Source: Candidatus Thorarchaeota archaeon
Lineage (GTDB): Archaea > Asgardarchaeota > Thorarchaeia > Thorarchaeales > Thorarchaeaceae
DNA: 64,000 bases
Direction: 5' to 3'
NCBI GenBank assembly: GCA_038893995.1
Contig: JAWAQK010000002.1
Coordinates: 45,367 to 109,366, forward strand
In this document: in pieces, positions 18,865 to 41,481 of the stretch
Numbering within the stretch: the first letter of the stretch is position 1
How the letters are laid out: each line of letters starts with the position of its first letter
Translations under genes and position numbers: made by a program
The notes under the pieces: model-generated
Database searches by the model: none
Seen by the model: the letters and a program-made list of their open reading frames with translations, nothing else
Told to the model about the DNA's origin: nothing

Positions 18865-21681
18865 CTACCAGAAACCCCGTGTCCTGGCGTATTGCTCTTC
18901 TGCTGCAGCAATTGCCCTAAGTAACGAGACTCTGTCCATTCTGCTAGGCGACAATATCCTGGATGCCATAGTCGGCCCGATGCCCCTTCCAGCTAGGACC
19001 ATGACTGCCCTCTTGCCGTACTCAGCCACTAGCTGAGCAGTAAGATCCATCTGTCGTACTAGCCTATTCGACGAAACCCTGTTCCGACGACCATCATAGG
19101 TACTATCCTTCTGGTCCCCCCTCCGGATCTTGAATACAGATATCATCCTTGATAGGCAGGTCGGGCACGTCACGATTTCGTCCAGTGAGTAGACCTTACG
19201 AACTGCGCTCCAGCTGCAGTTTCGGCACTGGAGCCGGAGTTCTGTGGATAGAAGCCTTCGCTCGAGCAGGGCGAGGATCTCTTCTTCCTCCAGGGTTTCG
19301 CCAACCAGTTCAAACCTGGACCTCCCTTCGACTATCGACTGTGCAAGTGGGGACATTGACGCTGGAATCACGATTTGAAATTGTATTCTGCCATTCCTGC
19401 AGTCTTCGAGGAACTCAATCACGCGTTTCTCATCCGTTTTCTGAAAGAGGACCTCGTTGAGTGCCTCATCGAACACGGGCGTGTTTCTCAGCAATCTGAT
19501 AAGATTTCTTGCTACGTTCGAGCTAGCCTCCGGTTCTATGACGCCCATTCTCTTGGCAACTTGTGCAAATCTGGACAGAAACGCATCTGTATTCTTTAGA
19601 GCCAACCGCAGCAGTGTTCTTGTCTGTGCAGCTTCAAGCCCTTTGAGCACGCATTCAATCTCGGAAGGGTCAATGTGCTGAGAGGTAGAGAGTAGTATCC
19701 TGTATGGATCGCTCTCCATTCCTATGTCAATCCCATGTCTTGTGGACAGAAGAGCAGACAGCAGCAGGCCAAGTGTCTCATTGGCCCTTGTTCCCAGAGG
19801 CACATGAACAACGAGCCCCATACTTGTGCTCTCGATGACGACGCGCTTGACAGATGGAATCACGCCAAGTATATGCATGCTAGCGTCGATGCACTGTATC
19901 ACATACTCTGCTGCTTCCTTAGTCAGCCGATATCGTTTCTCTAGCCATTTGCAAGCCCTCTTCTTTGTCATGGTTGCGACGTGATTCCAAACGGAAGACA
20001 CTTCGACAGCCACCTCATAAGGAACTGGAATCATCTCTCCCGTCCATCGCGGAGGCGCAGTATCAGTACTGACTGCAGGTCTGCATAGTACCTCCTCATC
20101 TATGCTGACGACATCGTACGTCCTACCTGCAATCACAAGGCTCGTACCTGCCGCCACATTGGTCTTGACATACTCCTCATCGAGGACTCCTACAGTTCTC
20201 CTTGTCAGTATGTCCAATACTGGTACTTGTCTGACATCGGGTATTGTTCCCAGATGTTCGTAGTAGAACTTCCTTGTCCTCCTCGTGGCTGCAACACGGT
20301 CTCCAATAACTGAGATCAGAGATCTCCGCTTCATGAACTCTATGAGACGCTCGATGTGTGATCTGTTGAACATCCTGAACGGACATGTTTCCCTTGTCAT
20401 CTCAAGCAGCTCGGTCAAGCTCACACTCCCGGAATCCAAGACAGCACCACATATCTGATGGCAGAGGACATCCCACGATTCCATCGGTATCTCGACATGC
20501 TCGACCTTGTTCAGAATTGCTCTCCGCACAATTACACCTGACTCAGTCACATCATCGAGGTTCATTGTTGCGATGACAACACCCTCTGCAGCACCCCCTA
20601 CCCGATGAGATGCTCTCCCTGCCCTCTGCAATTCCCTTGATACATTACGTGGACTGCTATACTGTACCACGAGGTCCGCCTGGCCTATGTCTATTCCTAG
20701 CTCCAGACTGGAAGTAGCTATCATTGCTTTGCAAGAGCCATTCTTGAACTCGTCTTCTGCCTCAAGCCGTTCGGACTTCGAGAGAGAGCCATGATGGACT
20801 CTGAGCTTGAGTGACGGATCGATTACCCTCATCTTAAGACCTAGTAGTTCAGCAAACGATCGCGTGTTGGTGAATATCAATGTCGAACTGTGTGTGTTTA
20901 TCAGATCTAGGATCCTCTTCAGTCGCGCCACGTTGTATGGTGAGACCTTGATCTCCCGAGCAATCCTCATGTCTTCGTCATCTGGCACGGGCATCTCAAC
21001 CCGTAGAATCATCCGTCGTGATTCAAATCCTCCCCAGATGATTCTGACGTACTGATCCGTTCCGCCCAACCATCCAGCAACAGTCCTGGGGTTACCAACA
21101 GTGGCCGAGAGTCCTATGCGCTGAATTCGTGAACCGGCTATTCTCTCAAGTCTCTCCAGACCGAGACTGAGCTGTACACCTCTCTTGCTACCGGCCAGTT
21201 CGTGTACCTCATCAATCACGGCCGTTCGTACGTTTCTGATGTGCATCTGCATTCTCGGAGCAGGGATGATCGCCTGTAGTGTTTCGGGAGTGAGGATCAG
21301 CAGGTCTGGTGGATTCTCCAATTGCTTCTTGCGGAAGTGTTGTGATGTGTCTCCGTGACGTACACTCACACTCAGACCAACATGGGTACAGATTCTCTCG
21401 ATGCGCTCGAGCAGATCCCTGTTCAGCGCACGAAGTGGGGTTATGTATAGCAGCCTCACGCCGCCTGAAGAACGATCGTCAGTCTGTTCTAACATCTTAC
21501 TTAACAGTGGAAGCAGTGCTGCCTCCGTCTTTCCAGATCCCGTGGGAGCTACGATCAGGAAGTTATCTCTGGACCGAAGAATCTCGGGTATTGCTGCTAC
21601 CTGAATTGGAGTTGGTTCGACTATTCCTCTATCTGCTAGGACTTCTCTTATCCGATCATGCAACAGCTCAAACACATTCAT
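18865..21681 (-). CDS. lhr: Lhr-family SF2 ATP-dependent helicase
   Basis: APTGSGKT, YITPLRAL, DEVH, GLSAT, HHGSLS, SSLELGID, QRAGRA; C-terminal Zn ribbon. Confidence 0.92.
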   Translation of the reverse strand: MNVFELLHDRIREVLADRGIVEPTPIQVAAIPEILRSRDNFLIVAPTGSGKTEAALLPLLSKMLEQTDDRSSGGVRLLYITPLRALNRDLLERIERICTHVGLSVSVRHGDTSQHFRKKQLENPPDLLILTPETLQAIIPAPRMQMHIRNVRTAVIDEVHELAGSKRGVQLSLGLERLERIAGSRIQRIGLSATVGNPRTVAGWLGGTDQYVRIIWGGFESRRMILRVEMPVPDDEDMRIAREIKVSPYNVARLKRILDLINTHSSTLIFTNTRSFAELLGLKMRVIDPSLKLRVHHGSLSKSERLEAEDEFKNGSCKAMIATSSLELGIDIGQADLVVQYSSPRNVSRELQRAGRASHRVGGAAEGVVIATMNLDDVTESGVIVRRAILNKVEHVEIPMESWDVLCHQICGAVLDSGSVSLTELLEMTRETCPFRMFNRSHIERLIEFMKRRSLISVIGDRVAATRRTRKFYYEHLGTIPDVRQVPVLDILTRRTVGVLDEEYVKTNVAAGTSLVIAGRTYDVVSIDEEVLCRPAVSTDTAPPRWTGEMIPVPYEVAVEVSSVWNHVATMTKKRACKWLEKRYRLTKEAAEYVIQCIDASMHILGVIPSVKRVVIESTSMGLVVHVPLGTRANETLGLLLSALLSTRHGIDIGMESDPYRILLSTSQHIDPSEIECVLKGLEAAQTRTLLRLALKNTDAFLSRFAQVAKRMGVIEPEASSNVARNLIRLLRNTPVFDEALNEVLFQKTDEKRVIEFLEDCRNGRIQFQIVIPASMSPLAQSIVEGRSRFELVGETLEEEEILALLERRLLSTELRLQCRNCSWSAVRKVYSLDEIVTCPTCLSRMISVFKIRRGDQKDSTYDGRRNRVSSNRLVRQMDLTAQLVAEYGKRAVMVLAGRGIGPTMASRILSPSRMDRVSLLRAIAAAEEQYARTRGFW

Positions 21682-21916
21682 CGGCTAGCTTTCCTTTCTT
21701 GATGCGGCGCTGAAAGTCATTGATGACTATCCGTATGTCGGTCGATAGGGTGATATCCGCTTGTCTTGCAAGCTCTTGAAGCTTGTCCAATGCGCTCTCA
21801 CATAGAACATTCTCTGAAACTATCTCTTCGATTATCGTTCTCATCTCTCGAAGATACACTAGATATGGGGCACATGACTGGAATGACTCGGCAAGCAGTG
21901 TCCTGCATGAATCTAT
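21668..21916 (-). CDS. Small conserved hypothetical helical protein (start uncertain)
   Basis: Open frame between the OST4-like ORF and lhr, overlapping the lhr start; GGTGA RBS precedes an ATA at 21916, first in-frame ATG gives MRTIIEE. Confidence 0.5.
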   Translation of the reverse strand: MDSCRTLLAESFQSCAPYLVYLREMRTIIEEIVSENVLCESALDKLQELARQADITLSTDIRIVINDFQRRIKKGKLADECV

Positions 21917-21926
21917 ACGTTCACCA

Positions 21927-22037
21927 TCATTCTTCAGATTGTTCCTGCCCCCAAACGCTGTAGGCCAGAATGAACACCAAGGCGAACAATCCAAGCATCA
22001 ACATGACTATGTAGAGCACATTCTGAAGCGTCTGCAT
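21927..22037 (-). CDS. 36-aa single-pass membrane microprotein, OST4-like (not in ORF track)
   Basis: MQTLQNVLYIVMLMLGLFALVFILAYSVWGQEQSEE*; TATA-like TTTTAAG about 30 nt upstream; one uncharged TM segment. Confidence 0.6.
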   Translation of the reverse strand: MQTLQNVLYIVMLMLGLFALVFILAYSVWGQEQSEE

Positions 22038-22093
22038 TGGAATCTGGCGACTCTGCGTCTAGTGCACTTAAAACAGTTGCTACTGCCCGTTGC

Positions 22094-22342
22094 CTACTCA
22101 GATCTTTGCATCTCTGAGAATCTGTCGACAAATGTCCCGTAGACGTCAACCGGTTCAGTTAGAGAGGTCACCTTCTCGATCGTCATGTCAAGCCCGCACG
22201 ACCCACATCTGACGGTGGCAATGCCCTCCTCCTGATACACTTCAATCTTTATTGCAACCTCTCCGCAGTTAGGGCACGCGTACACGTCGGGAATTCGCTT
22301 CTGGGGTCGTCGAATCACCTTTTGCCTACGTCTTCTTCCCAT
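22094..22342 (-). CDS. elf1: Transcription elongation factor Elf1
   Basis: MGRRRR, CPNC...CGSC, EPVDVY..FVD. Confidence 0.92.
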   Translation of the reverse strand: MGRRRRQKVIRRPQKRIPDVYACPNCGEVAIKIEVYQEEGIATVRCGSCGLDMTIEKVTSLTEPVDVYGTFVDRFSEMQRSE

Positions 22343-34553: not shown

Positions 34554-37292
34554 CTAATACAGATCTACGGGTACCCAGAATGAGTACCAATTGGTCATCA
34601 GTGTTGGCAGACCTGATTGGGTGTTCCTCCAGTACAGGAACTGGATCTGATAGTTCATTCCCGGTTTCATGGATAGATCCTGGGAGTCACGAGAGTTGAG
34701 TGGTATTATGTACTCAACGACTTTGTTTCCAGCACCGGACTCCGATGGGTTAATACCCGTGCTGTCCTGCTTCCAGGCGCCTCCTTCGACTGAGTAACCG
34801 TCATAGTGTGCCTGACCGTTGTAATTGACTGCATGGATATCCACGAAATCGGTTCTTCCGATCTGAGACAATTGGATACCGATTGCGTCATTGGCATAAT
34901 CGTAGTTCTCCATCTCAATCCCGATGTACATATGGGTCTCATTTGCCCTCATGTAGATGTCAGCATAGTGCCCCGCGCCGAATACTACGCTTCGCTTGGC
35001 AAATGTGCGCTCGGTAGCCCCGATTTGTCCATCCGCCTTGGCAAAGTGGAGAGATCCCTTCTCCGTCTTCCATTCCGCGCTGGTGCGATTCTGATATTGG
35101 TAGAGCATTGTGTAATCTATCTCGTATATCTTGACCAATCCGTATCGGTAACTGACAAAGACCGGCTTGAATGCACCGTGGAGAGTGGTCGGAATGTTAT
35201 TGACCCACCTGGTATCAGTTTCCTTCTCTATGTAGTACCTGTCGTATGCCAGTCGGTCACTTGACAGGGTTGTGCCCTGAGTTGACCTTGGTTCTTCAAA
35301 TAGCATCAGCTTATAGAGGGTCGAACGGAAGAATGCATCAAGTGTATACTCGTCCTCCTTTACGTCTGCCGTATTCGGATTGTCACCGAGGTAGATTGCA
35401 TCATCTATCTTACTTGATCCAAGTCTGTCCTCAGCTATGCGTACCATCCAGGGCCATTTTCCGTCATCTCCTCCCACTCCAGGGACACGATGTCCCCAGT
35501 ACACAAGGACATGAGTGGCATTCCAGATCTTGAACGTCTTCAGTGACTCGGTGAGGTTCAGCGCCATCAAGGCGTATCCCATCAGTGCTATTTGTGTGGA
35601 ATTATGCGTGGAGTTATCCACGATTGTACGGGCTCCGCCTGCGGTGCCAATCCAGTATCCGTAGTCCCACCAGGAAGCTATTGTTGCTGATGGTGGGAGC
35701 GTCCTGATGAACGTCATCGCAGTCTGCCAGTCTGTATGTGAAGAATCATATGCAAACTCAGGACGATTGGACGCGCTTGTGGCAAAACTGACGCCTGTGA
35801 AGACAGTCATTGAAAGCATTAGACCAACCACAAGGTATGCGGCGAGTGCATGTTCTGAAGTCAGAGCCGAGCTCACCCTGAACCTTCGTCTCTCGAAAAC
35901 TGATTTCTGGACGACTATTCTTGCAAAGGGTGCTAACACTCCATTGACCGCGACGGCACCCAATACGGCTGCTCCCACAGACAGAATCAGTGCTAGCCTT
36001 ATCATACTACCCGTAAAGTACACTGAGGAGATCCCGTAGAGCACTAGCAGGATGTCCTCGTCTCTTCGTCTCTTGAATAGGAAGTACATTCCCAGCGGCA
36101 TGAACAGGACAAGTACTGAGAGGTTGCTGTAGAAGCTTGACCACGGACTTGGAAGGTGTTCTGCAACTGATGCAAATATGCGTTGTTCCATCCTGAAGAA
36201 CGGGTTTACCACTGTGAGAAACTTTCCGCCGATGGTCAGGAATGGTGTGGACTCAAGTGTAGCTATCTGCAACCCGATGTTGCCTGTATAGACGAAGTAT
36301 CCTACCACTCCAATCGCCGACGTGATGGCTCCGAACAATATCGGACGCAAGTATGAACCAAACGCGTCCATTGCAGCTGCACGTTGCCCCGCCATCCTGA
36401 TCCAGATTTCATACCCAACCAGGAGTACTCCAATCCCAACAGGTACCATGAATGACACCGAGCTGATATCGGAGAATCCGTTGCGAGGAACCAAGTTGCC
36501 TATGAACAGCCCAAGTGCAATAGTGATTGTGTAGGTGGACAACAATCTCTGGCTGTATCTTCCAAAGAGTATCATCAAGAACGCATACAGTGCAAATAGG
36601 CTCACTAGGAAGTCAGCTGCACCCCATGATGCATTGAGGTACGCAATGGCAAGGCCTGCTCCTACTGCGGACAGTGTCGAGTTTCGTTTAAGCGACCTAA
36701 CAAACAGCCAAAGAGCCAGTACGATCGCAAAGACTCCTAAAGACTCGTTGTCAAAGAACCCGGCTATCGATCTCTGCATGTATGCAGGGAGAACCGCCAT
36801 GAAAAGGGCTGTGAGCATGCCGACTGTGTTGTTAGACGTCTCCCGTCCGAGAAAGAATGAGAGCAGAACAGTAATTGCTCCCATGATTGCTGGGAATACC
36901 AGTGCCACATAGGTGATACTCACCTCTATTCCCAACGCGTTGGCCAGATAGTACACAAATGCTCCCGTGAACGGTACACCCAGGTACGCTCTCTCCGCGA
37001 TCTGACGCCCAAATGGAACCCAGCTCGTGTCGTCATACCAGCTGAAGAAAGCCACATAGCCATGTTGAGCTACATACTCAACTAACTTCAGCTGGAACCA
37101 TGGGTCAAAGGCACGTGGAATTGGCTGGGACTGCATCAATGGATATAGCCGCATCATGAGTGCCAATATCAGAATCATTGGCATTGTCACTGCTACTATC
37201 ACAGTTCCACGGGTGATCTTTGCCTTTGGTCTATGAAAGACAAGCGACAGAAACTTTGATGCGGACTTCTTGAGTCTGCTGAGTTGGGGCAT
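34554..37292 (-). CDS. aglB: Oligosaccharyltransferase catalytic subunit STT3/AglB with extra C-terminal domain
   Basis: FDPWF, RSIAGFFDNE, SVAEH, WWDYG, DNSTHN, DDGKWPWMVRIA; multiple TM helices. Confidence 0.96.
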   Translation of the reverse strand: MPQLSRLKKSASKFLSLVFHRPKAKITRGTVIVAVTMPMILILALMMRLYPLMQSQPIPRAFDPWFQLKLVEYVAQHGYVAFFSWYDDTSWVPFGRQIAERAYLGVPFTGAFVYYLANALGIEVSITYVALVFPAIMGAITVLLSFFLGRETSNNTVGMLTALFMAVLPAYMQRSIAGFFDNESLGVFAIVLALWLFVRSLKRNSTLSAVGAGLAIAYLNASWGAADFLVSLFALYAFLMILFGRYSQRLLSTYTITIALGLFIGNLVPRNGFSDISSVSFMVPVGIGVLLVGYEIWIRMAGQRAAAMDAFGSYLRPILFGAITSAIGVVGYFVYTGNIGLQIATLESTPFLTIGGKFLTVVNPFFRMEQRIFASVAEHLPSPWSSFYSNLSVLVLFMPLGMYFLFKRRRDEDILLVLYGISSVYFTGSMIRLALILSVGAAVLGAVAVNGVLAPFARIVVQKSVFERRRFRVSSALTSEHALAAYLVVGLMLSMTVFTGVSFATSASNRPEFAYDSSHTDWQTAMTFIRTLPPSATIASWWDYGYWIGTAGGARTIVDNSTHNSTQIALMGYALMALNLTESLKTFKIWNATHVLVYWGHRVPGVGGDDGKWPWMVRIAEDRLGSSKIDDAIYLGDNPNTADVKEDEYTLDAFFRSTLYKLMLFEEPRSTQGTTLSSDRLAYDRYYIEKETDTRWVNNIPTTLHGAFKPVFVSYRYGLVKIYEIDYTMLYQYQNRTSAEWKTEKGSLHFAKADGQIGATERTFAKRSVVFGAGHYADIYMRANETHMYIGIEMENYDYANDAIGIQLSQIGRTDFVDIHAVNYNGQAHYDGYSVEGGAWKQDSTGINPSESGAGNKVVEYIIPLNSRDSQDLSMKPGMNYQIQFLYWRNTQSGLPTLMTNWYSFWVPVDLY

Positions 37293-41064: not shown

Positions 41065-41481
41065 TCAACCATAGGCCGTCTTGAGGCTCATGAGGTACAT
41101 CATTAGGACCACGGTGATACCGAGCATTAGGATTGCGATGAGCATGTACCGTGTAGCTCGGCCTGGTTGGAATACAAGTCTTGACGCATGATATAGCAAA
41201 CCAAGGCCTAGCGATCCAAAGAATACAAGGACCGCCACAACAAATCCCTCAAGTCCAAGCTGGAAGTCCGGCGTGGGGTATACTACCACCGGTCCACTCG
41301 ATCCACTGACGACCGCTGGTGGAGTCTTCACCAATGCAAAGATGTTTCCTCCAACTACAAACACGTACAGAACGAATATGAACCCAAAGATGACCATGTC
41401 TGGAGGTCGCGATACAGTCCCCAGTTTGGGTCGTTTCAGATTCAGCCTTGGTCTTACTATGAATCGTGGCCACCATGGCAT
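41065..41481 (-). CDS. OSTC/DC2-like (OST3/OST6 family) three-TM membrane protein
   Basis: PRLNLKRPK, TM1 ending GG.IF....PP, Q...EG, G.LG, C-terminal M.LK; 138 aa, no thioredoxin domain. Confidence 0.75.
   Translation of the reverse strand: MPWWPRFIVRPRLNLKRPKLGTVSRPPDMVIFGFIFVLYVFVVGGNIFALVKTPPAVVSGSSGPVVVYPTPDFQLGLEGFVVAVLVFFGSLGLGLLYHASRLVFQPGRATRYMLIAILMLGITVVLMMYLMSLKTAYG

Follow-up and report, generated by a model that had tools for sequence, protein, structure and literature searches.

The window analysed here, a continuous stretch of 64,000 nucleotides, comes from a Thorarchaeota assembly of 2.33 Mb that is distributed over 82 contigs and is 91% complete. Positions 21927-22037 of its minus strand (stop codon included) carry an ATG-initiated open reading frame (ORF) for a single-helix membrane microprotein of 36 residues, with one hydrophobic stretch at about residues 7-29. 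The original prediction, which had placed a 36-residue ORF between elf1 and lhr, was exact in coordinates, strand and translation. It had also described the peptide as a possible archaeal homologue of OST4, the small subunit seated on STT3 in eukaryotes, and the following sections discuss the gene, its relatives and the bearing of both on this reading.

The microprotein gene and its probable transcription unit

The upstream neighbour of the microprotein gene is elf1 (22094-22342, minus strand), which encodes a transcription elongation factor and is recognised by Pfam Zn_ribbon_Elf1 with 66 bits. The two genes are separated by 56 nt, and this gap contains the microprotein promoter (22067-22080, minus strand), composed of the TATA box TTTTAAG at 22067-22073 and a BRE-like stretch at 22074-22080. 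The box is situated 29 nt 5' of the microprotein ATG. In 20 of 20 aligned relatives, a box with the consensus (A/G)TTATAAG, preceded by AGCAA, is found at an equal distance from the start, and the TATA-like box that had been assigned to the gene is thereby confirmed. The conserved box at a fixed spacing gives the microprotein gene a promoter of its own and implies that the leader is very short, as expected from the usual archaeal spacing between TATA box and start.

Directly downstream lies orfX (21668-21907, minus strand), the gene of a helical protein of about 77 residues that belongs to the PF2048.1 family. Comparison of the frames in 23 loci reveals a gap of about 20 nt between the microprotein stop and the beginning of orfX, which carries a Shine-Dalgarno-like motif of its own. 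In the window, its 3' end runs 14 nt into the start of lhr (18865-21681, minus strand), which encodes an Lhr-type helicase with the Pfam domains DEAD, Helicase_C, WH_Lhr and DEAD_assoc and is the last gene of the apparent unit. The proximity of orfX to the microprotein stop, together with its overlap with lhr, suggests that the three genes are probably transcribed as one unit from the microprotein promoter. The gene order is the same in 20 of 20 loci, in which a cysteine desulfurase gene and a small wHTH gene occupy one strand, and elf1, the microprotein gene and lhr are located on the opposite strand.

The orfX profile (alignment A5) matches PF2048.1 of P. furiosus, an uncharacterised protein (PDB 6E4J/6NS8), with an E-value of 1.9e-12, and orfX is also present in Pyrococcus, outside the Asgard archaea. 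The C-terminus of the orfX product is basic. Its conserved N-terminus in the window contains no ATG, GTG or TTG codon, and the open frame extends upstream into the microprotein gene; an ATA codon just past the microprotein stop, with a GGTGA motif 4 nt before it, is a candidate non-canonical start. We also note weak matches of the orfX profile to BLOC-1 subunit 2 (PDB 9tqb_H, E 4.7e-4) and of Pfam BLOC1_2 to 4 of 18 orfX members (best E 0.0089). The parts of BLOC-1 and BORC are eukaryotic trafficking proteins, and the likeness may reflect coiled-coil resemblance alone. A further ORF of 36 codons that starts with Met-Gln is found at 21798-21908 (minus strand), just past the microprotein stop and in the frame of the microprotein, where it overlaps orfX out of frame. 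It is most likely spurious, since it sits within the conserved orfX gene.

Conservation and spread of the family

A six-frame search with the peptide as query recovered the microprotein ORF in all 24 genomes of the same GTDB family that were searched, and a 20-member profile detected it in 75 of 76 family genomes. The hits amount to one frame in nearly every genome, with 36-61 codons from stop to stop. The 20 thorarchaeial copies in alignment A1 all begin with Met-Gln, contain a single hydrophobic helix and terminate in a stretch of Glu residues; M1, Q2, L20, Y26 and G30 are invariant among them, and G16 and A19 are nearly so. The median pN/pS in codon-level comparison is 0.38, and values of about 0.11-0.20 were obtained for the three closest pairs. 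The ORF is, beyond reasonable doubt, a real and conserved gene under purifying selection, and conservation, on which the original prediction had been made to depend, proved to be strong. The window copy scores 56-57 bits against the family profiles, occupies the syntenic position and agrees with the definition of the Asgard family in length, mid-helix glycine or small residue, tyrosine, acidic tail and neighbours.

The exact sequence of the window microprotein has no match in the public protein collection, which indicates that the gene was left uncalled in the window assembly. Orthologues from other Thorarchaeota MAGs are called as "hypothetical protein" by NCBI, JGI and ENA; 153 relatives are on record under this label, without a Pfam domain. 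The description of the gene as unannotated is therefore accurate for the window assembly, but its orthologues in other MAGs have been called. Gene callers overlook this conserved component in some assemblies, that of the window included. When 1.84 billion representatives were searched exhaustively with a profile, 24 clusters were recovered at E≤0.001, and each of them is of this Asgard peptide type; the clusters contained no OST4-type sequence, and no protein of another kind was present among the 18 sequences fetched from them.

Beyond the thorarchaeial family, a profile built from Thorarchaeia alone gives weak matches, yet these fall in recurring small frames, and several of the frames are backed as orthologues by start codons with Shine-Dalgarno motifs and by conserved neighbours (families are numbered here with the prefix f). 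The microprotein-like ORF of f15 is located directly upstream of orfX-lhr. That of f19 is followed by orfX, with lhr and a metallophosphoesterase gene at a distance of 2 kb, and that of f13 (Atabeyarchaeia) is likewise followed by orfX, in the vicinity of RPA and elf1. With orfX as anchor, f2, f7 and f8 were each found to carry a divergent copy immediately 5' of it. Adjacency of microprotein and orfX is kept in f1, f2, f7, f8, f13, f15 and f19. In f16, the copy immediately precedes a DEAD-box (Lhr-like) helicase gene and reaches 28 bits with profile A6, in which the f16 member is not contained. A similar ORF follows herA-nurA in f22, a Heimdall group, where microprotein-like ORFs occur in 12 of 21 genomes; its membership in the family is less sure.

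The broader family profile yields one small-frame match per genome and none in long ORFs at E≤1e-4. The family ranges from 31 to 44 residues in length and spans at least eight Asgard families, nine if f22 is counted, among them Thorarchaeia, Atabeyarchaeia and possibly a Heimdall group. At one f22 locus (L060:2285-5729), the ORF has a TTG start after a GGAG motif and lies between herA-nurA and the gene of ribosomal protein S3Ae, in surroundings of DNA-repair genes that include neither orfX nor lhr. In the f19 and Atabeyarchaeia loci, a gene for a SWIM-type zinc-finger protein is situated directly upstream of the microprotein (L053:2551-2955, plus strand; L051:3192-3518, minus strand; L065:2493-2891, plus strand), and the block of SWIM gene, microprotein and orfX seems to be conserved there.

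Similarity to OST4 and predicted docking on STT3

The window encodes two proteins of the oligosaccharyltransferase (OST). STT3/AglB, of 912 residues (34554-37292, minus strand), is recognised by PF02516 with 177 bits and lies 12.5 kb from the microprotein gene. A relative of the membrane part of Ost3/Ost6, of 138 residues with three helices (41065-41481, minus strand), matches positions 183-290 of PF04756 with 31 bits, which is over the cut-off; it is located 19 kb from the microprotein gene and is present in 39 of 40 genomes of the family. The three helices and the restriction of the match to the membrane part of PF04756 indicate that this protein resembles the short DC2/OSTC rather than the thioredoxin-bearing Ost3/6. 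The distances between the microprotein, STT3 and DC2-like genes are kept among relatives as general synteny without formation of a cluster, and the microprotein gene never adjoins glycosylation genes. Ribophorin I gave no match at E≤1 in the 91%-complete genome to which the window belongs. Outside the window, a frame of 69 codons (contig C45:12342-12518, minus strand) is a candidate relative of Ost5/TMEM258, with 20.3 bits and E 0.0014 against Pfam Ost5, the cut-off of which is 27.4.

Searches with HMMER returned nothing that would link the thorarchaeial proteins to OST4. Pfam Ost4 (PF10215), for which membership requires a gathering score of 25 bits, has no match at E≤10 in the window microprotein or the 20 thorarchaeial members of A1, and none in the six-frame translation of the genome of origin. 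None of 301 Asgard genomes contains a match over the cut-off, and no listed match falls at a thorarchaeial microprotein locus. The six-frame matches to Pfam Ost4 in Asgard genomes resemble those of control genomes, and most of them were rejected as noise, being typically short Tyr-His frames in AT-rich DNA. Profiles A1 and A6, searched against PDB sequences at E≤10, found no OST4; their output was either empty or made up of chance matches to helices in multi-pass proteins. With the microprotein family HMM, the OST4 sequences of human and yeast each reach about 0 bits, and an HMM built from these two sequences ranks the microprotein ORF 1204th among 55,563 frames of its own genome. Human and yeast OST4, however, match each other with just 16.7 bits (E 0.067), which suggests that HMMER has weak power at such a length. 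Scans against Pfam of the window protein, the 20 thorarchaeial A1 members and 16 distant members found no significant family, with weak and scattered matches only, and the ESM Atlas was uninformative: unnamed clusters were reached at 0.83-0.85, and the named ones were unrelated, with a cosine of at most 0.80.

Comparison of profiles with hhalign gives a different picture. The family aligns with PDB-verified human and yeast OST4 in a constant register, in which G16 corresponds to G15 of OST4 and Y26 to Y25. The scores of 13.7-14.8 (P 0.0035-0.0066) correspond to an HH probability of 6-9%. Shuffling of the helix columns gave scores of 8.4-9.9 ± 1.6-1.9, and the observed score was reached by 3 of 150, 1 of 150 and 0 of 120 shuffles. 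Among 24,736 Pfam models, the top match of the f16 orthologue is Ost4 (17 bits, E 0.0055, below the cut-off), and the same orthologue is the best genome-wide match to the Ost4 HMM in both f16 genomes that carry it. The f8 orthologue has Ost4 as its sole Pfam match (12 bits, E 0.17, below the cut-off), aligned from residue 1. Neither match is significant alone after correction for about 36 peptides, and they come from different lineages and point in the same direction. We also note that the f2, f7 and f8 copies open with Met-Ile-x-Asp/Glu or a close variant, as OST4 does.

The sequence of human OST4 given in the original prediction is correct and identical to PDB 2LAT/6S7O. Of the features that this prediction had proposed as shared, the length, the single helix and the Gly-x9-Tyr spacing hold throughout the family, whereas Thr3 is not conserved and the tail is acidic where that of OST4 is basic. 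The histidine after the tyrosine, which it had found missing, is absent from every aligned family member (A1, A2, A6). The comparison of profiles with Ost4, proposed as a further check, is divided: tests of the HMMER type remained empty, and hhalign placed the observed score above 149 of 150 and 120 of 120 shuffles, together with the Ost4 matches of f16 and f8. At the level of sequence, homology of the microprotein with OST4 by common descent is weakly suggested and falls below standard significance thresholds.

Co-folding with STT3 had also been proposed, and places the peptide, as a prediction, between the first and last membrane helices. The modelled complex comprised STT3 residues 1-520, the DC2/Ost3-like protein and the microprotein, with alignments of 64, 25 and 20 rows, respectively. 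In three runs, ipSAE reached 0.78, 0.76 and 0.75, compared with 0.00 for the best of three controls, which consisted of two unrelated 36-residue partners, possibly not membrane helices, and one unrelated 545-residue receptor. ipSAE represents the model's own confidence. Of 80 solved complexes, 58 reach the mark used for it, as do 2 among 110 mismatched pairs; with three chains and custom alignments, these figures are a rough guide here. The docking score may also partly reflect memory, since eukaryotic OST structures have already been solved. At least 93% of the contacts are common to the runs, and the partner pLDDT is 75 or higher.

The predicted contacts on STT3 comprise residues 27-53 (first transmembrane helix), 154-167, 450-461 and 486-505 (last transmembrane helix before the external domain), of which 154-167 form the helix preceding the conserved Asp-Asn-Glu loop. 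The tightest predicted pairs involve microprotein residues 15-24, the stretch that holds the most conserved positions, G16, A19 and L20. No confident contact between the microprotein and the Ost3-like chain was listed for the complex model. The numbering of the peptide runs antiparallel to both STT3 helices in the model, from which an N-out/C-in orientation with a cytoplasmic acidic tail is predicted. The N-terminus of OST4 is lumenal or outside and its C-terminus cytosolic. Yeast Ost4 sits between TMH1 and TMH13 of Stt3, and charged substitutions at its positions 18-24 destabilise the Stt3-Ost4-Ost3 subcomplex (review, PMC7226087). On this model, the microprotein is predicted to occupy the seat of OST4 on STT3, in the groove between the first and last helices.

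Interpretation and comparison with known systems

We propose, with a probability of about 0.55, that the microprotein is an OST4-like mini-subunit of STT3 and probably homologous to OST4; both this function and the common descent are what we infer from the results above. The 36-residue single-helix protein, expressed from its own TATA promoter, would serve as a mini-subunit of the thorarchaeal oligosaccharyltransferase. Through a conserved face of small residues (G16, A19 and L20, followed by Y26), its helix would pack into the groove that the first and last helices of STT3/AglB enclose. The predicted orientation, with an outward-facing N-terminus and a cytoplasmic acidic tail, would be that of eukaryotic OST4 on Stt3. 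By analogy with OST4, on which the stability of STT3 and the incorporation of Ost3/Ost6 depend, the microprotein may stabilise STT3 and perhaps help to hold the DC2/Ost3-like subunit. A bolder version appears very improbable to us, namely that OST4 descends from this peptide as its direct archaeal ancestor-type, that AglB acts as a multi-subunit complex of STT3 with Ost4-like, DC2/Ost3-like and Ost5-like proteins, and that conserved co-transcription with orfX and lhr, in most of the Asgard families with the peptide, represents a real functional tie between glycosylation at the membrane and a nucleic-acid helicase module rather than the sharing of a promoter.

The microprotein could instead be an Asgard-specific membrane protein with a different partner, either the PF2048.1-like orfX protein and, by way of it, the Lhr helicase module, which the acidic tail would tether to the membrane, or another membrane complex. 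The likeness to OST4 would then be that of any short helix with a glycine and a tyrosine, and the docking an artefact of the model. This explanation, which we regard as somewhat unlikely, draws on the neighbourhood: adjacency to orfX is kept in seven families, the f16 copy lies upstream of a DEAD-box helicase gene, and in at least seven families the microprotein gene is closely linked with a gene of the PF2048.1 type, with one for an Lhr-type helicase, or with the two together. The basic C-terminus of orfX could meet the acidic tail of the microprotein, and the HMMER-type tests of OST4 against the window and thorarchaeial proteins were negative. The genes are separable, however, as 12 of 21 f22 genomes contain microprotein-like ORFs and 0 of 21 contain orfX, while f10, f18 and f21 possess orfX without a detected microprotein and orfX extends beyond the Asgard archaea to Pyrococcus. 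A different partner would also leave unexplained the OST4 register, the two top matches to Ost4 and a high docking score against controls that score zero. If the predicted docking is right, it favours binding to STT3, and a convergent mini-subunit that binds STT3 and acts like OST4 would account for it with an independent origin. The similarity to OST4, at an hhalign probability of 6-9%, is too weak to prove descent, the charge of the tail is opposite, and the 16.7 bits between human and yeast OST4 leave little signal either way. Convergence nevertheless would require the length, the modelled orientation, the Gly-x9-Tyr register and the Met-Ile-x-Asp/Glu start of f2, f7 and f8 all to be coincidental. 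Shared descent is simpler, since a relationship of STT3 and further OST subunits of Asgard archaea to their eukaryotic counterparts is accepted (PMC10307638), and we consider an independent origin distinctly improbable.

That the ORF has no protein function, and is a leader peptide or upstream ORF regulating orfX-lhr or a chance ORF, is scarcely credible. The ORF is very short and is the first of the apparent unit, as such a reading would have it, but it is conserved at the amino-acid level with pN/pS well under 1, is constant in start, stop and length across 75 of 76 genomes, belongs to a family with members elsewhere in the genome in f13, f19 and f22, and gathers clusters solely of its own peptide type in the exhaustive search. 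An arrest or leader peptide resembling MifM, with a helix and an acidic run before the stop, was considered separately and rejected: a peptide of this length could not bridge ribosome tunnel and membrane at once, the downstream genes are not membrane-insertion genes, and members occur without orfX. The phrase "possible archaeal OST4 homologue" in the original prediction is a fair description of the peptide, short of proof.

If the microprotein is the STT3-bound equivalent of OST4, subcomplex II (STT3, OST4 and Ost3/DC2) would already have been present in Asgard archaea, and multi-subunit OST assembly would be older than eukaryotes. Among other small membrane proteins, MgtS-like proteins, YldA, DWORF and Sec61-beta are of similar size and contain a single hydrophobic helix, but their scores are in the range of chance (Atlas cosine ≤0.80; Pfam E >0.08), and they have neither a shared register nor a predicted partner.

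Eukaryotic OST4, represented here by yeast Ost4p, human OST4, PF10215 and the PDB entries 1RKL, 2LAT, 6EZN, 6C26, 6S7O and 6S7T, is a protein of 36-37 residues with one membrane helix and a short polar N-terminus, as is the microprotein. Both contain a glycine near the middle of the helix and a tyrosine ten residues further on, at the cytoplasmic end, and the microprotein is predicted to share the N-out/C-in topology and the position on STT3, where the first and the last membrane helix flank it. In contrast to OST4, the microprotein has no Pfam Ost4 match and lacks the histidine after the tyrosine. Its tail is poly-Glu where that of OST4 is Lys-rich, and the thorarchaeial proteins start with Met-Gln where OST4 has Met-Ile-Ser/Thr-Asp. 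A PF2048.1-like gene and lhr are probably transcribed together with the microprotein gene, and the binding to STT3 is predicted.

Homologues of Ost4 and Ost5 in most Asgard classes were reported by Eme et al. 2023 (Nature 618:992; PMC10307638) with methods for distant homology; in the accessible part of the supplementary text, only Ost5 and Wbp1 are named as new. The broad occurrence of these Ost4 homologues among Asgard archaea resembles that of the microprotein family with its at least eight families, and the Asgard Ost4 proteins of Eme et al. are likely to be the microprotein family. The idea of an archaeal OST4 homologue was hence already in that work, and the novelty of the present reading is modest. 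What is added to the claim of 2023 is a concrete gene with its promoter and operon, a family alignment and a predicted docking on STT3.
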